Below, piece by piece: positions 23,618 to 37,103 of a stretch of 64,000 bases of DNA. Below the pieces are notes generated by a model. The model was not told the origin of the DNA and ran no database searches. It saw only the letters and a program-made list of their open reading frames with translations. The DNA lies in assembly GCA_021845905.1 (NCBI GenBank), contig JAJZVA010000002.1:76577-140576 (forward strand). The letters are read 5' to 3'. A program made the translations under genes and the position numbers. The stretch comes from Pseudomonadota bacterium. GTDB lineage: Bacteria; Pseudomonadota; Alphaproteobacteria; Micavibrionales; UBA2020. Position 1 is the first letter of the stretch; each line of letters starts with the position of its first letter.

Positions 23618-24649
23618 ATGTTCGGACGCGAAGCCAGAAGAAGAAAAGAAGAACAAAGACAGCTGGAACAAAGGAAAGAAAACCTGCTGGCCGCGGCGCG
23701 GAACAACGATACCGCCGGCGTGGTGAAATATTTCATGCGCCGCCCGGTTGTGTTTGATGCCTGCCTTGCCGCCGTGGAGGCGGGTTCCGTCGATGCGCTG
23801 AAGGCTTTATTGCGGAGAAACCTGGGTTTTGACTTTTCGGAATTCAGAGACCAGGACGTTCTGAAAGCAAAGCGTCTCGTCAATGCAGCGCGCGGCTCCG
23901 ATAAAGCCGACGCCTTGCTCACCGTCCTTTTCGCGGCAAACGAAACAACGGAATGCGGCAAGCTGCACCAATCGACGTTCATTTGTCCTGAAATCTCCCA
24001 CGACATACTGAGATGCATCCTGCTCATGACGCCATCAACCTTCGAGACCGCCATCGACGTTATCGGCCTTGAGGATACCGACAGGTTGAAATTCATCCTC
24101 GCCTTTCTGCCGAAGGACGGCAGCGGGCAGGGCGCGCTTGACAAGGCGCTGAGCGTTTCCGCTGAAAGAAACGACGTTGAAAAAGCGCAAATGCTCCTCG
24201 ACAAGGGCGCGAACGCCAATCATGCCGAGGCGCAGGCGTTGCAAAACGCGGCGATGGCCGGTCATATGGACATGGTCTGTCTGTTGTTGCTGCATGTCGA
24301 TCTTCTGCTCTACGGCAACGACGTCTCGGCGCAGGTCGAGCATGCCCATCCCGACCTCGCGAAGCTGATCGCCGACGCGACCGCGATTTGCTTCCAGGAA
24401 GAAGAAAGCCCCTTTGTCGCGCTCAATAAAAACATTCTGGAGGAGCGGCAAACGCTCTCCGGCGGCAAAACGCTGACCACGATATTCAATTTCGAGACAC
24501 GGCAGCAGCATAACGCCATCGAAACGCCGCAGGGAACGGAGAAAATGACCACCGTCAACTTCAAGGATATCGATGCCGGCGTCCTTGAAAAAATGCGCCG
24601 CAAACTCGACGGACTCAACGCTGCAAAACGCCTCGTCAACAAACCTTAA
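23618..24649 (+). CDS. ankyrin-repeat-like hypothetical protein, paralog A1
   Basis: 343 aa; MFGREARRRKEEQRQLEQRKE charged N-terminus; ANK-like ..AERNDVEKAQMLLDKGANANHAEAQALQNAAMAGHMDMVCLLL..; conserved C-terminal module ..TLTTIFNFETRQQHNAI..VNFKDIDAGVLEKMRRK. Confidence 0.7.
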   Translation: MFGREARRRKEEQRQLEQRKENLLAAARNNDTAGVVKYFMRRPVVFDACLAAVEAGSVDALKALLRRNLGFDFSEFRDQDVLKAKRLVNAARGSDKADALLTVLFAANETTECGKLHQSTFICPEISHDILRCILLMTPSTFETAIDVIGLEDTDRLKFILAFLPKDGSGQGALDKALSVSAERNDVEKAQMLLDKGANANHAEAQALQNAAMAGHMDMVCLLLLHVDLLLYGNDVSAQVEHAHPDLAKLIADATAICFQEEESPFVALNKNILEERQTLSGGKTLTTIFNFETRQQHNAIETPQGTEKMTTVNFKDIDAGVLEKMRRKLDGLNAAKRLVNKP

Positions 24650-24662
24650 AGGAGAAAAAACC

Positions 24663-25709
24663 ATGTTTGGACGCGAAAGAAAAGCGCGGGAGCGCGCGGA
24701 AGCGGAGCGGCTGGAACAGGAGGCGCGCAAGGCGGCGGCGCGCGCCGCGGACGAGGCGCGGGCGCAAAAACAGCGCGAAGGCCTGGAGGCGGCGCTCAAG
24801 ACGGACGATCCGTCGCTGTTCGACGAGCAATATTTCGTTTTCGACGTCAGCCCGGTCAACAGAATCTACGATGCCGCGAAAAGAGCCATTGCGCAAAACG
24901 CGCCGAAAGTCTTTCATGCGCTGACCCACGGAAAGTTTCCGAACTACTACAGCTCCTTCACCTTCGGGAGCACATGGGAGGAATCAAAACAGAACGTCCG
25001 CCTGTTGCTCGCCGACATATCCGCATCCGCGGAGCCGGGCCTCTTCTGGGAGATCATGCGCGACGGCAATGAAAAATCGACCGTGGATAAACCACGGCTT
25101 GCTTCCGCGGAGTTTCTGACCCCCGCCGCGTCGCCGGAATTCATCCATGACCAGCTCCTCAAGAATCCGGAGCTCTTCACGACCTGCCTTCGCGACATCG
25201 GCGTTCGGGATCCGGAAAAGCTGGAGCTTATCCTTGCCTTCGCGCCGAAAGACGACAGCGCGCACATCGCGCTGGTCGCGGCGGTGGTGGAGGTCTCTCG
25301 AAATGAGGACGCGCTTGATCAGCTCGCGGCGCTTTTGCCGCATATCGATCTGGCGCGGCACGGCGCGCACATGGCGGCGCTGGTCAGGTTTTTCAACCCC
25401 GAGATGGCAAAGCTGATTTCGGATGCGACGGAGATCATGCGCTGCACCCCTGAGGCGGAAGAAACCGTCCATCCGGCGCAGGAGAGCGACATACACGTTG
25501 AAAAGCAGGCCATTCCCGGCGGCGGCACGCTGACGGCCATCTTCAACTTCACGCTCAAACAGCAGCATAACGTCATCAGGATGCCGGGCGAAGACCCTGT
25601 CGCGACCACCGTCCAGTTCAGGGACATCGACAAGGGCGTTCTCGCCGCGATGCGCCGAAAATACGACGCCGCGCAAAAACCGCCGGAAAGCCCGCCGCCC
25701 GCGCCTTAA
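24663..25709 (+). CDS. hypothetical protein, paralog A2 of 23618-24649
   Basis: 348 aa from ATG 24663 (RBS aaaggag); MFGRERKARERAEAERLEQE..; shares LILAFAPKD.., AKLISDATEI.., ..TLTAIFNFTLKQQHNVI..VQFRDIDKGVLAAMRRK with A1. Confidence 0.7.
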   Translation: MFGRERKARERAEAERLEQEARKAAARAADEARAQKQREGLEAALKTDDPSLFDEQYFVFDVSPVNRIYDAAKRAIAQNAPKVFHALTHGKFPNYYSSFTFGSTWEESKQNVRLLLADISASAEPGLFWEIMRDGNEKSTVDKPRLASAEFLTPAASPEFIHDQLLKNPELFTTCLRDIGVRDPEKLELILAFAPKDDSAHIALVAAVVEVSRNEDALDQLAALLPHIDLARHGAHMAALVRFFNPEMAKLISDATEIMRCTPEAEETVHPAQESDIHVEKQAIPGGGTLTAIFNFTLKQQHNVIRMPGEDPVATTVQFRDIDKGVLAAMRRKYDAAQKPPESPPPAP

Positions 25710-33323: not shown

Positions 33324-34049
33324 TTATTGCGGATACAGCGCGGCGTAGAAGCCGTAAGCGCCGCTGCCGTTGCTGACGCACATTTGCTTCATATTGACGC
33401 AGGCCGCGCAGGCCGTCGCGTCGATGGTCACCGTCGCGTCGCTGGTGAACAGGCTGGTGAAGGCGGTGGAGCTCATTGTCGGGATCGCCGTCGTGCCGTT
33501 GACGATCTGGTTGATGCGCGCGCAATAGGCCGCGTTCTCGACATTGGCGGTGAAGACGGTGTCGCCGGGGCCGGAATCGGTCGGCCCGACGCCGACGATG
33601 ATCGCCCCGGGGTCGATGCCGTAGCCCGACGCCACCGGCGTGCCGGAATTGGAACTGGCGGAAAGATAAGAGACGCCGCCGCCGCTCGGATAAAAGAGTT
33701 CCAGCGCGTGGTTCGAATCGCCGCTCGCGCCGCTTTCATAGGTTGCGTCGCCCGGTTTGGATAGATCGAGGCTGCTGTAAAGCGTGTCGGCCTGCGCGTA
33801 GCCGGAAACCACCATCTCGTTGAGCGCCTGCCCGATCGTCGCGGTATAGGCGAGCATGCGGTTGATCTGGTCGTCTTCCGTCTGCTGCGGCAGGACGTTC
33901 GACTGGTCTTTGGAATAGTTGGCGATGGCCAGCGTCAGGAGGCCGAAGATGAAAATGCCGATCAGCACCAGATAAAGAATGCTGCCGCGCGCGGGTTGTT
34001 TTTCCGGCGGGTTGTTTTCCGTTTTTTCTCGCGGCGCTTTTGTTTTCAT
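33324..34049 (-). CDS. hypothetical pilin-like protein (charged N-terminus, single N-terminal hydrophobic helix, Cys-rich C-terminal region)
   Basis: 241 aa; ..QPARG|SILYLVLIGIFIFGLLTLAIANY.. resembles a degenerate class III (prepilin) signal lacking Glu5; Gly/Ser/Thr-rich body; C-terminal ..ATACAACVNMKQMC.. Confidence 0.55.
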   Translation of the reverse strand: MKTKAPREKTENNPPEKQPARGSILYLVLIGIFIFGLLTLAIANYSKDQSNVLPQQTEDDQINRMLAYTATIGQALNEMVVSGYAQADTLYSSLDLSKPGDATYESGASGDSNHALELFYPSGGGVSYLSASSNSGTPVASGYGIDPGAIIVGVGPTDSGPGDTVFTANVENAAYCARINQIVNGTTAIPTMSSTAFTSLFTSDATVTIDATACAACVNMKQMCVSNGSGAYGFYAALYPQ

Positions 34050-34146: not shown

Positions 34147-34183
34147 AAAAAAAGACCCGGCCTCGGGAGGACGGGTCTTTTTT
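34147..34183 (-). terminator. bidirectional intrinsic terminator hairpin downstream of the Clp-like gene
   Basis: aaaaaaa-GACCCG-gcctcgggagga-CGGGTC-tttttt: A-run and T-run flank a GC stem. Confidence 0.6.
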
Positions 34184-34207: not shown

Positions 34208-36829
34208 TCAGGCGCCGGGATTTTGCCCGACCGCCCGCTTCTTGCGCGCGGCGCTTCTCTTTTTCGTCACGACGTTGTCGTTGGCGGTTTCGCTCGCCGG
34301 CGGCTCGTTCGGGACGATCGACGGAGCGACGGCGTAACGCCGCTTGTCGTTCATTTCGATCGAGTTGATGACGATCGTCACCGCGCTCTTTTCCGAGGCC
34401 TTCTCGATTTCCTCGCGGTTTTCCATCAGCCACTTGGTGAGCGGATTGATGATCTTGTCGCGAATGACCTTGTCCATCGGACGCGCGCCCATCGTCGGGT
34501 CGTAGCCCATCTTGCAGAGCTCGTCCATCACCTTGGGGGCGACGGAAAGCGACACGCCGGAGAGGCCCTGGCCGTCCGCGTTCGAAAGGCGGGCGCTGAT
34601 GTCGCCGATCTGTTTCTTGGCGATCAGCGCGACGACTTCCTTGGCAAGCGGCAGATAGGTGATGAAGCCGCCGAGCATGTTGATGCGGTTGACCATCTCC
34701 GGACGGAAGAGCGCCGCGCGCGCCGGCGCGAAGGCCGTGGCGGGAATCGGCTGGCTGATGGCTTGGGCGTAGATTTTCTCCAGCGCCGTTTTCAGCTCTT
34801 CCGGTTCGAGGGTGTTCTTCCCGAAGCCCATGCCGCCGGTTTTTCCGCCCTTGGAGATGAGCTCCATGGCTTCGGACGCGCCAGCATTGGTCGTCATCAG
34901 GATGATGGTGTTGTTGAACTTGATGGTGTTGCCGTGGTTGTCCGTCGTCTGGCCGTCCTGCAGGATGGGCAGAAGGATGTTGAACACGTCCGGGTGCGCC
35001 TTTTCGATTTCATCGAGCAGGAGAATAGTGTAGGGGCGCTGGCGGATCTGTTCGAACACCGGCTCGGAATCCTCGAAGCCGACGAAGCCCGGAGGCGCGC
35101 CGATCAGGCGGGAAACCGCGTGCTTTTCGGCGTATTCGGACATGTTGAGGGTGATCACCGCGTCTTCGGAACCGAAGAGGTAGCGGGCGAGCGCCTTGGC
35201 GGTTTCGGTCTTGCCGGTGCCGGTCGGGCCTTGCAGCACGAAGCAACCCCACGGCTGGCGCGGGTTGGGCAGGCCGCCGCGCGCGCCGATCAGCGCGTCG
35301 GTGATGCGCAGGAGGTCGGGCTGGCCGAGCACTTTCTTCGGCAGTTCCTCTTCGAGCTTGAGGAAACGCTCCTTGTCCTTCTGCGCGAGGAAGTCCTGCG
35401 ACAGGCCGGACATTTGCGACACGGCGGCGATGATGTCCTTGCGCGTCACGGTTACGCGGCCGTCGAATTCCGCGCCGGAAGCGGCGGTATTCATGGCTTT
35501 TTCGCCCTTGCGCGGCTGGGCTTCCTGCGGCGCGAAGCGGTTGGTCATGGTGATGAGGTATTTGAGGTCGTCGTCCGAGATCGCTTCCGAGAGACCGTTG
35601 TGCTCCTCCGTCAGCGGCCACAGCTTGCGCAGGATGGCGAAGGTCGTTTCATCGTCCGGCGGCATGAGGCGCGTCTTCTCGAAGCGGCTGGCGAGCGCCG
35701 GGTCCTTTTCGATGTGCTTGCGGTATTCCTTGTCGGTGGTCGTGCCGAGGACGGAGACGCCCTTGGCGGTGAGGAACGGCTTCATCATGTTGCCGGCGTC
35801 CGTGCCGCCCTGGGCCATGCCGGCCGTGAGCTGCGAGTGGATTTCGTCGATGGCGAGGATGATCTTCTTGCCGCGGAAGATGCCGCCGCGCTCGGCGAGG
35901 CCGTCGATCAGCGGTTTCAGCCTTTCCTCGAATTCGCCGCGGAACTTTGCGCCGGCGTTCATGCTTTGCAGGTCGAGTTCGAGGACGCGCGCGCCTTCGA
36001 GGCTGATGGGCAGCTTGCCCGTTTCGGCGTTGTCGACGAGATACTGGGCGATGCCGGAGAACATGGTGCTTTTGCCCACGCCGGCGTCGCCTGTGAAGCA
36101 CTGGCTCGACTGCTTGCGGCGGCCGAGGACGCGCATCGCCTGCTCGATTTCCTGATCGCGGCCGATGACGGGGTCAAGATCGCCGCGGCGGGCCATTTCG
36201 GTCAGGTCCTTGCAGTATTTGACAAGGGCCTGCTCGAGCTGGCTGTCGGAGATTTTATAGTTGCGCTGCGCCGTATTGTTGAACGGCACGCGCACCGGAC
36301 GCGGCTTTTGCACCGCGAGCCGCGGCGGAACGGGCGCGCCGTGCGCGGCGCGCGCGGTTTGGGCGATGCCGTTCGTGTGTTGCGGCGGCAGGGAGAGATA
36401 GACCGTGCCCGGCTGGTTCGCGGGCGAATCGACGTTCTCGAAGCGCGCCGGGAAGTCGGCGCCGAAGTTTTCCTGCGCGATGAGTTTTTTCGATTCGGGG
36501 GTCAGTTCGAAGGCGATGCGTCCGCCGGCCGAAGGTACGGCCCTGTAGGTGACGTCAATCGTCTCGCCTTCATAGTCGCCCGCGTTGGTCATGGCGATCT
36601 TGTAGACAGTGACGGTGACTGCCGCGCGGGTGCCGCTGACGGTCATCATTTGCTTGTCGTCGAACGCGTAGATTTTCTGCCCCGCCGCGAGCGGTTCGCC
36701 ATTATAGGCGTGCAACGGCCGTTGCGGTTCCCCATCCTTGAATTCCAGCGCGTACTGGCGGGTGCTTTTGGCGTCCGTCAGGTAGATGAAGCCGTTGAAG
36801 TTTTCGGTGTTGGCGGGATCTGTCGTCAT
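34208..36829 (-). CDS. atypical two-ring Clp/Hsp100 AAA+ ATPase lacking Clp_N and M-domain, with an unrecognised ~215-aa N-terminal domain
   Basis: 873 aa; D1 ..DLDPVIGRDQEIEQAMRVLGRRKQSSQCFTGDAGVGKST.. Walker B ILAIDEIH; D2 ..VLQGPTGTGKTETAKALA.. Walker B ILLLDEIEKAH, ..RPEMVNRI..; N-terminal 215 aa beta-rich with no Clp_N repeat; basic tail ..TKKRSAARKKRAVGQNPGA. Confidence 0.85.
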   Translation of the reverse strand: MTTDPANTENFNGFIYLTDAKSTRQYALEFKDGEPQRPLHAYNGEPLAAGQKIYAFDDKQMMTVSGTRAAVTVTVYKIAMTNAGDYEGETIDVTYRAVPSAGGRIAFELTPESKKLIAQENFGADFPARFENVDSPANQPGTVYLSLPPQHTNGIAQTARAAHGAPVPPRLAVQKPRPVRVPFNNTAQRNYKISDSQLEQALVKYCKDLTEMARRGDLDPVIGRDQEIEQAMRVLGRRKQSSQCFTGDAGVGKSTMFSGIAQYLVDNAETGKLPISLEGARVLELDLQSMNAGAKFRGEFEERLKPLIDGLAERGGIFRGKKIILAIDEIHSQLTAGMAQGGTDAGNMMKPFLTAKGVSVLGTTTDKEYRKHIEKDPALASRFEKTRLMPPDDETTFAILRKLWPLTEEHNGLSEAISDDDLKYLITMTNRFAPQEAQPRKGEKAMNTAASGAEFDGRVTVTRKDIIAAVSQMSGLSQDFLAQKDKERFLKLEEELPKKVLGQPDLLRITDALIGARGGLPNPRQPWGCFVLQGPTGTGKTETAKALARYLFGSEDAVITLNMSEYAEKHAVSRLIGAPPGFVGFEDSEPVFEQIRQRPYTILLLDEIEKAHPDVFNILLPILQDGQTTDNHGNTIKFNNTIILMTTNAGASEAMELISKGGKTGGMGFGKNTLEPEELKTALEKIYAQAISQPIPATAFAPARAALFRPEMVNRINMLGGFITYLPLAKEVVALIAKKQIGDISARLSNADGQGLSGVSLSVAPKVMDELCKMGYDPTMGARPMDKVIRDKIINPLTKWLMENREEIEKASEKSAVTIVINSIEMNDKRRYAVAPSIVPNEPPASETANDNVVTKKRSAARKKRAVGQNPGA

Positions 36830-37103
36830 TCTATGTACTCCTGGGTGGGATCTCTTTTGTGGATCTATAGTTATGGCTTTGTTGTTTACGTAGTGTTAAA
36901 CATTTGAATCACCACATCAAGAAAAATTATATGGATTATTGTTTTTTAAAAATATAATTATTTTTCTAAGGCATAAAAAAACAGTATTACGAATAATAAC
37001 AATAAAATTATTCGATTATGAAATTAAAACCCCTAAACCATCTCCATGTCCGACAAATGAGACACATAAAATGAGGAAAAGACTCGATTCTTGGCGCGCA
37101 GAA
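36830..37103. promoter_or_regulatory. strongly AT-rich ~270-bp upstream region of the Clp-like gene
   Basis: Long A/T runs (..ttgttttttaaaaatataattatttttctaagg..) in an otherwise GC-rich genome; RBS aggag 9 nt before ATG 36829. Confidence 0.5.

Follow-up and report, generated by a model that had tools for sequence, protein, structure and literature searches.

A predicted Hsp100 clade of ClpA-like architecture with a portable β-rich N-terminal module in uncultured Micavibrio-like alphaproteobacteria

Introduction

What Hsp100/Clp ATPases do in the cell depends almost wholly on three parts, the N-domain, the M-domain, and the ClpP loop, and earlier new combinations of these parts (ClpV, ClpG/K, ClpL, and Skd3) each revealed a new cellular function. 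ClpB relies on a coiled-coil M-domain for coupling to Hsp70; ClpC and ClpE are Hsp100s that work with ClpP in Firmicutes, Actinobacteria, and others; and the stand-alone disaggregases ClpG and ClpL carry unusual N-domains. Here, we describe a gene for a two-ring Hsp100-type ATPase that falls outside the named classes. It lies in a 64,000-nucleotide stretch of contig JAJZVA010000002.1 (positions 76,577 to 140,576; assembly GCA_021845905.1, Pseudomonadota bacterium), which was analyzed as a whole and is called the window below; the product of the gene is called the window protein.

We estimate a probability of about 0.6 that the window protein is an unfoldase of ClpA architecture from a new, vertically inherited clade, in which a β-rich N-terminal module (N-module) picks the substrates and coupling to ClpP is probable. 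The clade would join a ClpA-like chassis to a module that is reused elsewhere, including in a putative metallopeptidase, and would thus offer a defined new specificity module for AAA+ research. It also draws attention to a gene that is conserved yet lacks annotation, in a little-known group of predatory or host-associated alphaproteobacteria, many of which have Dot/Icm-like secretion genes nearby. Both specialists in AAA+ proteins and proteostasis and students of such bacteria may find it of interest.

Results and Discussion

Two intact AAA+ rings

The window protein is present in identical form on 18 public contigs. Pfam recognizes AAA, AAA_2 (E = 2e-48), and ClpB_D2-small (E = 1.7e-13) in its 873 amino acids (aa), and its PDB matches are ClpB, ClpC, and ClpA, all at E ≤ 1e-94. 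A sequence-only reading of the same DNA had called both AAA+ modules intact, and every motif that it quoted was located: Walker A GDAGVGKST (residues 247 to 255) and Walker B ILAIDEIH (residues 324 to 331) in D1, and Walker A GPTGTGKT (residues 534 to 541) and Walker B ILLLDEIEKAH (residues 602 to 612) in D2. Two pore loops, AKFRGEFE (residues 294 to 301) and PGFVGF (residues 580 to 585), were also found. Tandem AAA+ modules with Walker A and B motifs, aromatic pore-loop motifs, and D2-small identify the protein as a class-1 Clp/Hsp100. Because both rings retain their ATPase and pore-loop motifs, the protein should, judging from these motifs, act as a hexameric ATP-driven polypeptide translocase.

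The sequence-only reading had let the canonical Hsp100 linker begin at about residue 215. The signature DLDPVIGRD does occupy residues 217 to 225, but Hsp100 homology sets in slightly earlier, at residues ~195 to 199, and solved ClpB, ClpA, and ClpC structures align from residue ~199. A full-length AlphaFold2 model, with a mean predicted local distance difference test score (pLDDT) of 83.6, contains the two AAA+ modules, the small subdomain of D1 consisting of short helices only. Its low-confidence segments, namely, the linker at residues 174 to 187, the GGMGFGK loop at residues 665 to 671, and the C-terminal tail at residues 844 to 873 (pLDDT <50), are the places where flexibility is expected.

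A clade outside the named Hsp100 classes

A search of 5.8 billion clusters retrieved ~83 clusters that match the window protein at 44 to 65% identity over 92 to 100% of the query, N-module included; between this clade and ordinary ClpB, scores fall from 673 to 439 bits. The window protein misses every NCBIfam equivalog cutoff by a factor of ~2 or more, with 508.7 bits versus 1232 for ClpB (TIGR03346), 456 versus 993 for ClpA (TIGR02639), and 447 versus 885 for ClpV (TIGR03345); the exception models give 374 versus 1900 for ClpK and 362 versus 1900 for ClpG. A neighbor-joining tree was inferred from 701 D1-D2 columns with 100 bootstraps; it included, for reference, ClpA and ClpB of E. coli, ClpB of Legionella, ClpK, two ClpK-like proteins, ClpL, TssH, and metagenomic sequences of ClpB/ClpC-like type. 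The 23 clade members sampled all sit together on one long stem, apart from all the references, with a bootstrap value of 66 at the node that takes in the two most divergent members, and their identity to any reference in the tree is 31 to 39%. The window protein accordingly stands apart from the named classes ClpA, B, C, K, L, and V.

None of the clade members has a curated name: they are unnamed proteins of metagenome-assembled genomes (MAGs) or automatically labeled ClpC, and their public annotation reads "ClpC," "AAA family ATPase," or nothing. These labels mask the failure of the clade proteins to meet the defining features of any named class. All source genomes are MAGs, labeled Micavibrio, Rhodospirillaceae, or Alphaproteobacteria. 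A hand-made, clade-specific DNA pattern for AIDEIHSQL, run on 185,579 GTDB species representatives, hit 29 loci, 24 of them confirmed to encode the N-module; by their labels, on which alone this taxonomy is based, they belong to "uncultured Micavibrio sp.," Rhodospirillaceae, Alphaproteobacteria, and one "Bdellovibrionales," the order under which NCBI places Micavibrio. Our literature search found no paper that describes this Hsp100 lineage or mentions DUF6782, a domain met repeatedly below, and the genome paper on Micavibrio ARL-13 mentions neither Clp nor Dot/Icm. Thus, we conclude that these proteins, as far as their sequences tell, form a distinct, previously undescribed, monophyletic class-1 Clp/Hsp100 clade from uncultured Micavibrio-like alphaproteobacteria.

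A portable N-terminal module

The N-module was modeled with AlphaFold2 on residues 1 to 220 from a 30-sequence alignment. The model has a pLDDT of 86.7 overall and >90 at residues 11 to 130, and it folds into seven or eight β-strands and one helix (residues 111 to 119). An invariant surface of the module includes D19, R24, Q25, Y26, E51, D58, and R160. The linker that follows the module varies in length across the clade; within it F183-N184 is conserved, F183 being nearly invariant. The β-rich model and the lack of any Pfam match to Clp_N in the protein, even at E ≤ 10, agree with the earlier view that Clp_N has been replaced. Pfam has no family for the N-module either. Foldseek searches against PDB and BFVD returned nothing below E = 0.02, the partial overlaps with NTF2-like sheets that they gave being insignificant, and hhalign comparisons gave probabilities of 0.1% with ClpA residues 1 to 170, 0.2% with ClpK residues 1 to 250, 0.07% with the TssH N terminus, and 0.65% with the ClpL N terminus. 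Structure prediction and searches thus match no known Hsp100 N-domain class, and the earlier proposal that the N-domain is novel stands, with the setting of specificity as its most plausible task.

A profile of residues 1 to 165, run against 1.84 billion cluster representatives, matched 67 proteins, which include, besides full-length Hsp100s, several non-Hsp100 architectures. There are stand-alone module proteins of 220 to 245 aa (one, P0151, is a complete open reading frame), two proteins in which two tandem modules precede a distinct C-terminal domain (P0121, a complete open reading frame, and P0122), one with a single module and the same C-terminal domain (P0136), and one in which an HExxH-containing DUF6782 domain ("putative metallopeptidase") is joined to a single module (P0167; Pfam E = 2.6e-17). 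The contigs of these non-Hsp100 proteins are too short to inform on context, and two metagenome scans yielded either nothing or contigs of only 1 to 3 kb. The stand-alone, tandem, and DUF6782-fused occurrences show that the module is portable, an independent domain without a detectable relative in Pfam or, with Foldseek, in PDB. For the Hsp100s, we infer that it has a recognition role, in the selection of substrates or adaptors.

The C-terminal domain of P0121, P0122, and P0136 has homologs in the window. Two tandem paralogs, both starting with MFGRE.R.. and the first with ankyrin repeats, end in an ~80-aa domain of the pattern ..GG.TLT.IFNF...QQHN.I....TTV.F.DID.GVL..MRRK (tblastn E = 1.6e-7; profile E of ~1e-33 to 1e-37). 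A partner domain of the N-module is thus encoded ~9 to 10 kb away from the Hsp100 gene, as part of other proteins.

Comparison with ClpA, ClpB, and other Hsp100s

In its architecture, the window protein resembles ClpA (E. coli; PDB 1ksf/6w1z). Both have two AAA+ rings, lack an M-domain, and carry a flexible hydrophobic-Gly-hydrophobic loop at the ClpP-docking position, and residues 199 to 654 are colinear with residues 166 to 612 of E. coli ClpA. Unlike ClpA, which has a helical Clp_N as its ClpS docking site, the window protein has the β-rich module, and it adds an NDN motif and a basic tail; D1-D2 identity is only 31%, the protein lies outside ClpA in the tree, and clpS is not adjacent. It thus has the architecture of ClpA, yet it appears not to be a ClpA by descent.

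ClpB/Hsp104 (Thermus thermophilus; PDB 1qvr) gives the highest D1/D2 scores (420 bits in PDB; 509 bits against TIGR03346), and its pore-loop sequences AKFRGEFE in D1 and GFVG in D2 are ClpB-like. However, ClpB has an ~115-aa coiled-coil M-domain and Clp_N and lacks the loop insertion, whereas the window protein shows the reverse, and its alignment to ClpB skips ClpB residues 391 to 504, the M-domain. When the fetched references are aligned jointly with the clade and residues are counted between the same columns, the M-domain region comprises 86 to 87 residues in the clade (86 in the window protein) versus 88 in ClpA, 136 in ClpL, 142 to 144 in ClpC-like proteins, 145 in ClpK, 206 in ClpB, and 236 in TssH. 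The full-length model contains no coiled coil or long helices, and the absence of an M-domain noted in the sequence-only reading is borne out.

With ClpC and ClpE, the window protein shares 36 to 37% D1-D2 identity and a ClpP-loop insertion that aligns column for column with GIGF/LGF, but it is without Clp_N, zinc finger, and half-M-domain (86 versus 142 to 144 aa). Without these parts, it has no MecA/McsB-type adaptor platform. ClpV/TssH, the ATPase that recycles the sheath of the type VI secretion system (T6SS), is likewise a two-ring Hsp100 and, dedicated through its N-domain to one machine, provides a model for the idea of a dedicated unfoldase; it differs in its sheath-binding N-domain of Clp_N type, its insertion of M-domain size, its lack of a ClpP loop, and its T6SS setting. 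ClpG/ClpK, which have an extra N1 domain beside Clp_N and an M-domain, and ClpL resemble the window protein in that their special functions come from noncanonical N-terminal regions, but ClpK and ClpL have M-domain insertions, no ClpP loop, and N termini unlike the N-module.

The ClpP-site loop and the likely mode of action

The sequence-only reading had pointed to an MGF tripeptide where ClpA carries its ClpP-docking IGL. The tripeptide sits in GMGFG (residues 666 to 670), and in the joint alignment the loop insertion is common to the clade, ClpA (IGL), and ClpC-like proteins (GIGF/LGF) and missing from ClpB, ClpK, ClpL, and TssH. This distribution makes ClpP coupling of the window protein plausible. 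In the mechanism that we propose, the N-module would capture a specific partner and pass it to the D1 pore, tethered to the rings by the flexible proline-rich linker; at about even odds, the GGMGFG loop would then dock on ClpP and the captured proteins would be degraded. Such a machine would serve the clade as a functional analog of ClpA that needs neither an adaptor nor ClpS. No ClpS-family gene was found in 10 annotated neighborhoods.

Several observations weigh against this explanation. The canonical [LIVM]-G-[FL] tripeptide is found in only 18 of 80 clade members, the loop tips of the remainder being LAL, GSF, MEL, ATF, and similar sequences (hydrophobic-x-hydrophobic); neither the window nor any of the fetched loci contains a clpP gene; and D1-D2 is slightly closer to ClpB/ClpC (35 to 39% identity) than to ClpA (31%). 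It is possible, though in our judgment rather unlikely, that the protein is a stand-alone unfoldase or disaggregase like ClpG, ClpK, and ClpL, whose N-module would attach directly to aggregates or to one particular complex and which would remodel or dissolve them without degradation. About three-quarters of the clade do not conserve the middle Gly and first hydrophobic position of the loop tripeptide, ClpB models give D1-D2 a higher score than ClpA models do, and unusual N-domains are a mark of ClpG and ClpL, all of which would fit such an enzyme. However, the ClpP-independent ClpB, ClpK, ClpL, and TssH have an M-domain-type insertion and no loop insertion, the opposite of what the clade shows, and the clade loci have none of the small heat shock protein or FtsH neighbors of the heat resistance islands that flank clpK. 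A ClpA-like unfoldase with probable ClpP coupling is therefore the reading that we prefer.

One clade member (P0078, 825 aa) is the only one without the Gly-rich loop insertion, and it also lacks the NDN motif and basic tail. The C-terminal part of its D2 is ClpB-like (..DYQVIKLAVLGEVKAQFRPEF..), and the sequence may be an assembly chimera or the product of recombination.

A conserved C-terminal extension

The basic tail mentioned in the sequence-only reading is a clade-wide feature; in the window protein it reads ...ANDNVVTKKRSAARKKRAVGQNPGA. The motif ND[NDQ] occurs ~21 aa from the C-terminal end in 72 of 80 members, and the tail has a mean of 5.6 K/R versus 2.0 D/E. N850 is invariant, and D851 and P871 are nearly so. 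In the window protein, motif and tail together take up residues 849 to 873 (positions 34211 to 34285). AANDN is the start of alphaproteobacterial ssrA tags and their SspB-binding part; the resemblance of [AS]NDN to such a tag could be mimicry or coincidence. No gene for transfer-messenger RNA was found within the window.

Genomic context and vertical inheritance

The window is ordinary core chromosome, with gcvP, tkt, gap, fba, pheST, dxs, ispA, bacA, ispH, rnhA, tsaD, hemC, hemD, and similar genes; it holds no other Clp gene. The GC content at third codon positions (GC3) is 0.86 in the Hsp100 gene and 0.80 to 0.88 in most neighbors. Upstream, the order Lactamase_B-gpsA-EVE-AAA_28-aroQ-accB-accC-YceI-cytB/YceI-GST-epimerase-like-Hsp100 is the same in four orthologous genomes (49 to 65% protein identity), while the downstream side varies among them. 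The native GC3, the housekeeping window, the conserved synteny, and the 24 confirmed species-level genomes lead us to conclude that the gene is vertically inherited.

The sequence-only reading had favored horizontal acquisition, and an accessory unfoldase acquired for defense or a mobile-element function would fit the AT-rich leader, the separate terminator, and the weak similarity that PADLOC reports between the D2 core and the candidate defense ATPases PDC-M37B and DolB. We consider this origin highly improbable. The PADLOC matches span only the generic AAA+ core (residues 531 to 659), and the N-module and the neighboring genes give none; composition is native, the setting is one of core genes, and synteny extends across orthologs of 49 to 65% identity in a clade with at least 24 species-level genomes. 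Genes for integrases, transposases, and tRNAs are absent from its vicinity. Because the upstream order and the AT-rich leader itself are conserved, recent horizontal acquisition is largely refuted.

Neighborhoods in the sister sub-clade

A larger sister sub-clade (type B) has a different neighborhood, DotD-SLT-hypothetical protein-Ank(n)-GNAT-Hsp100-DUF6782 (convergent)-HIT, where Ank(n) denotes an array of ankyrin-repeat genes; at least one of its elements is present in ~20 fetched loci, and DotB, TraI/DotC-like, IcmT, and TcpQ-like genes lie just beyond, within 10 kb. The most divergent (basal) clade member, P0080, and the type A relatives have housekeeping neighbors. The sequence-only reading had held that core-gene orthologs without conserved accessory neighbors would speak against a dedicated function; the sub-branch of the window comes close to this, whereas the sister sub-clade, with its GNAT/DUF6782/Ank/Dot-Icm-like neighborhood, does not. 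As for the secretion, disassembly, or defense function that it envisaged, PADLOC gives no defense signal, T6SS genes are absent from the window and the clade loci, and proximity to a type IVB secretion system (T4BSS) is confined to the one sub-clade.

This proximity would suit an accessory unfoldase of a Dot/Icm-like T4BSS, an analog of ClpV that would recognize effectors (such as the Ank proteins) or parts of the machine through the N-module and unfold or recycle them. Besides the type B loci and their dot/icm-like genes, a strain variant of the window species (L003) has an SLT-hypothetical protein-GNAT block beside the gene, directly after the gene for a 241-aa protein downstream of it, and the C-terminal domain of P0121, P0122, and P0136 recurs in the two tandem window paralogs, one of them with ankyrin repeats. 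Even so, a T4BSS role is quite improbable. Homologs of Dot/Icm, SLT, GNAT, and DUF6782 are absent from the window, and type A relatives and the basal P0080 sit in housekeeping contexts. In type B loci, several divergently oriented genes part the Hsp100 gene from the dot genes, so that they do not form one operon; the Ank genes there do not encode the C-terminal domain of P0121 and P0136; and synteny within a single lineage may reflect mere shared ancestry.

The adjacent DUF6782 proteins were compared in four loci. They have 457 to 512 aa, HExxH (e.g., LAHELLHAAQ), N-terminal signal peptides, and Pro-rich C termini, and two of them have a lipobox-like LSGC or AGGC, features that point to exported (lipo)protein peptidases as their probable identity. 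The N-module was not found in them. Since they have export signals and no N-module, adjacency to a cytoplasmic unfoldase is weak functional evidence, and it counts against the T4BSS role as well. Another possibility, in our view unlikely, is that the N-module, as a new recognition domain, marks a dedicated protein-processing pathway of Micavibrio-like bacteria in which the Hsp100, the DUF6782 metallopeptidase fusion P0167, and the small stand-alone or tandem module proteins would share one target, maybe effectors or components of the Dot/Icm-like T4BSS that most of the clade has beside the gene, with the ssrA-like [AS]NDN and the basic tail acting as a second docking or regulatory element.

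Dot/Icm-type genes were observed 0 to 10 kb upstream of the Hsp100 gene in L004, L005, L007, and L008 and in ~15 more loci among L010 to L036. They are followed by SLT, an ~280-aa protein, and arrays of two to five small ankyrin-repeat genes. Such a combination resembles an arsenal of eukaryote-style effectors, here in a group known to prey on bacteria, and our literature search found no paper on Dot/Icm genes with ankyrin arrays in Micavibrio-like MAGs.

Leader, terminator, and downstream gene

The features of the locus are listed in Table 1.

Table 1. Features of the Hsp100 locus, in window coordinates unless another locus is named
Feature	Position	Strand	Basis or remark
Complete gene, two-ring Hsp100-type ATPase, 873 aa	34208..36829	-	Open reading frame, Pfam, AlphaFold2
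β-rich N-module, residues 1-165 (core 11-133, then conserved (F)PPHH..AR segment)	36335..36829	-	AlphaFold2, profile
Variable proline-rich low-confidence linker, residues 166-194	36248..36334	-	pLDDT, clade alignment
N-D1 linker helices and D1 AAA+ module with short small subdomain, residues 195-483	35381..36247	-	Alignment, motifs, model
D1 Walker A	36065-36091	-	Motif positions
D1 Walker B	35837-35860	-	Motif positions
D2 AAA+ module and D2-small, residues 484-815	34385..35380	-	Pfam, motifs
D2 Walker A	35207-35230	-	Motif positions
D2 Walker B	34994-35026	-	Motif positions
Gly-rich flexible loop KGGKTGGMGFGKN, residues 660-672, at ClpP-docking-loop position	34814..34852	-	Alignment, pLDDT
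C-terminal extension, residues 816-873: two short strands, Ala/Pro spacer, [AS]NDN, disordered K/R-rich tail	34211..34384	-	
[AS]NDN motif	34274-34285	-	Clade alignment
AT-rich leader/promoter region, 274 bp, 30.7% GC (window 61.9%)	36830..37103	-	Sequence
Conserved block TTTTTCTTGAT-N17-weak -10-(C/T)TACGTAA	36886-36926	-	Four-ortholog comparison
GGAG ribosome-binding site, 9 nt ahead of ATG		-	Sequence
Bidirectional intrinsic-terminator-like hairpin, A6-GACCCG...CGGGTC-T7	34147..34183	.	Between gene and downstream 241-aa gene
Gene for 241-aa protein	33324-34049	-	
First tandem paralog (ankyrin repeats)	23618-24649	+	
Second tandem paralog	24663-25709	+	
DUF6782 neighbor, locus L004	12741-14114	-	
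DUF6782 neighbor, locus L005	12811-14304	-	
DUF6782 neighbor, locus L007	12884-14260	-	
DUF6782 neighbor, locus L008	13060-14598	-	

The sequence-only reading had also described an AT-rich upstream region of ~270 bp and a bidirectional terminator, and both are there. Within the leader, the promoter-like block is kept in the four orthologs (49 to 65% protein identity), whose leaders are otherwise divergent. A sigma-32-type promoter was considered and rejected: although the conserved CTTGA box is compatible with a -35 element, a CCCCAT-like -10 element is missing, and we make no claim of heat shock control. Rfam searches of the leader and gene returned no family, only subthreshold noise. The palindrome (T)TACGTA(A) that follows the weak -10 element also occurs in the leaders of L039, L040, and L041 and could be an operator. 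The terminator-like hairpin has a folding free energy of -24.6 kcal/mol (z = -4.47), and none of 200 shuffled sequences was equally stable.

Contigs that encode the identical Hsp100 protein diverge just beyond the gene for the 241-aa protein. Next come genes for acyl-CoA dehydrogenase, NUDIX, and RNase H in the window, for UbiD, SCP2, and U32 in L001 and L002, and for SLT, a hypothetical protein (hyp266), GNAT, and IleRS in L003; the divergence reflects either a hotspot of rearrangement between strains or a difference in assembly. The 241-aa protein has a basic N terminus, one transmembrane helix (ILYLVLIGIFIFGLLTLAI), and a Gly/Ser/Thr-rich, Cys-containing body, which gives it a pilin-like or secreted look. 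It was found in this species only, with no match in Pfam or PADLOC, and at the orthologous locus of P0002, a Flp pilin gene takes its position.

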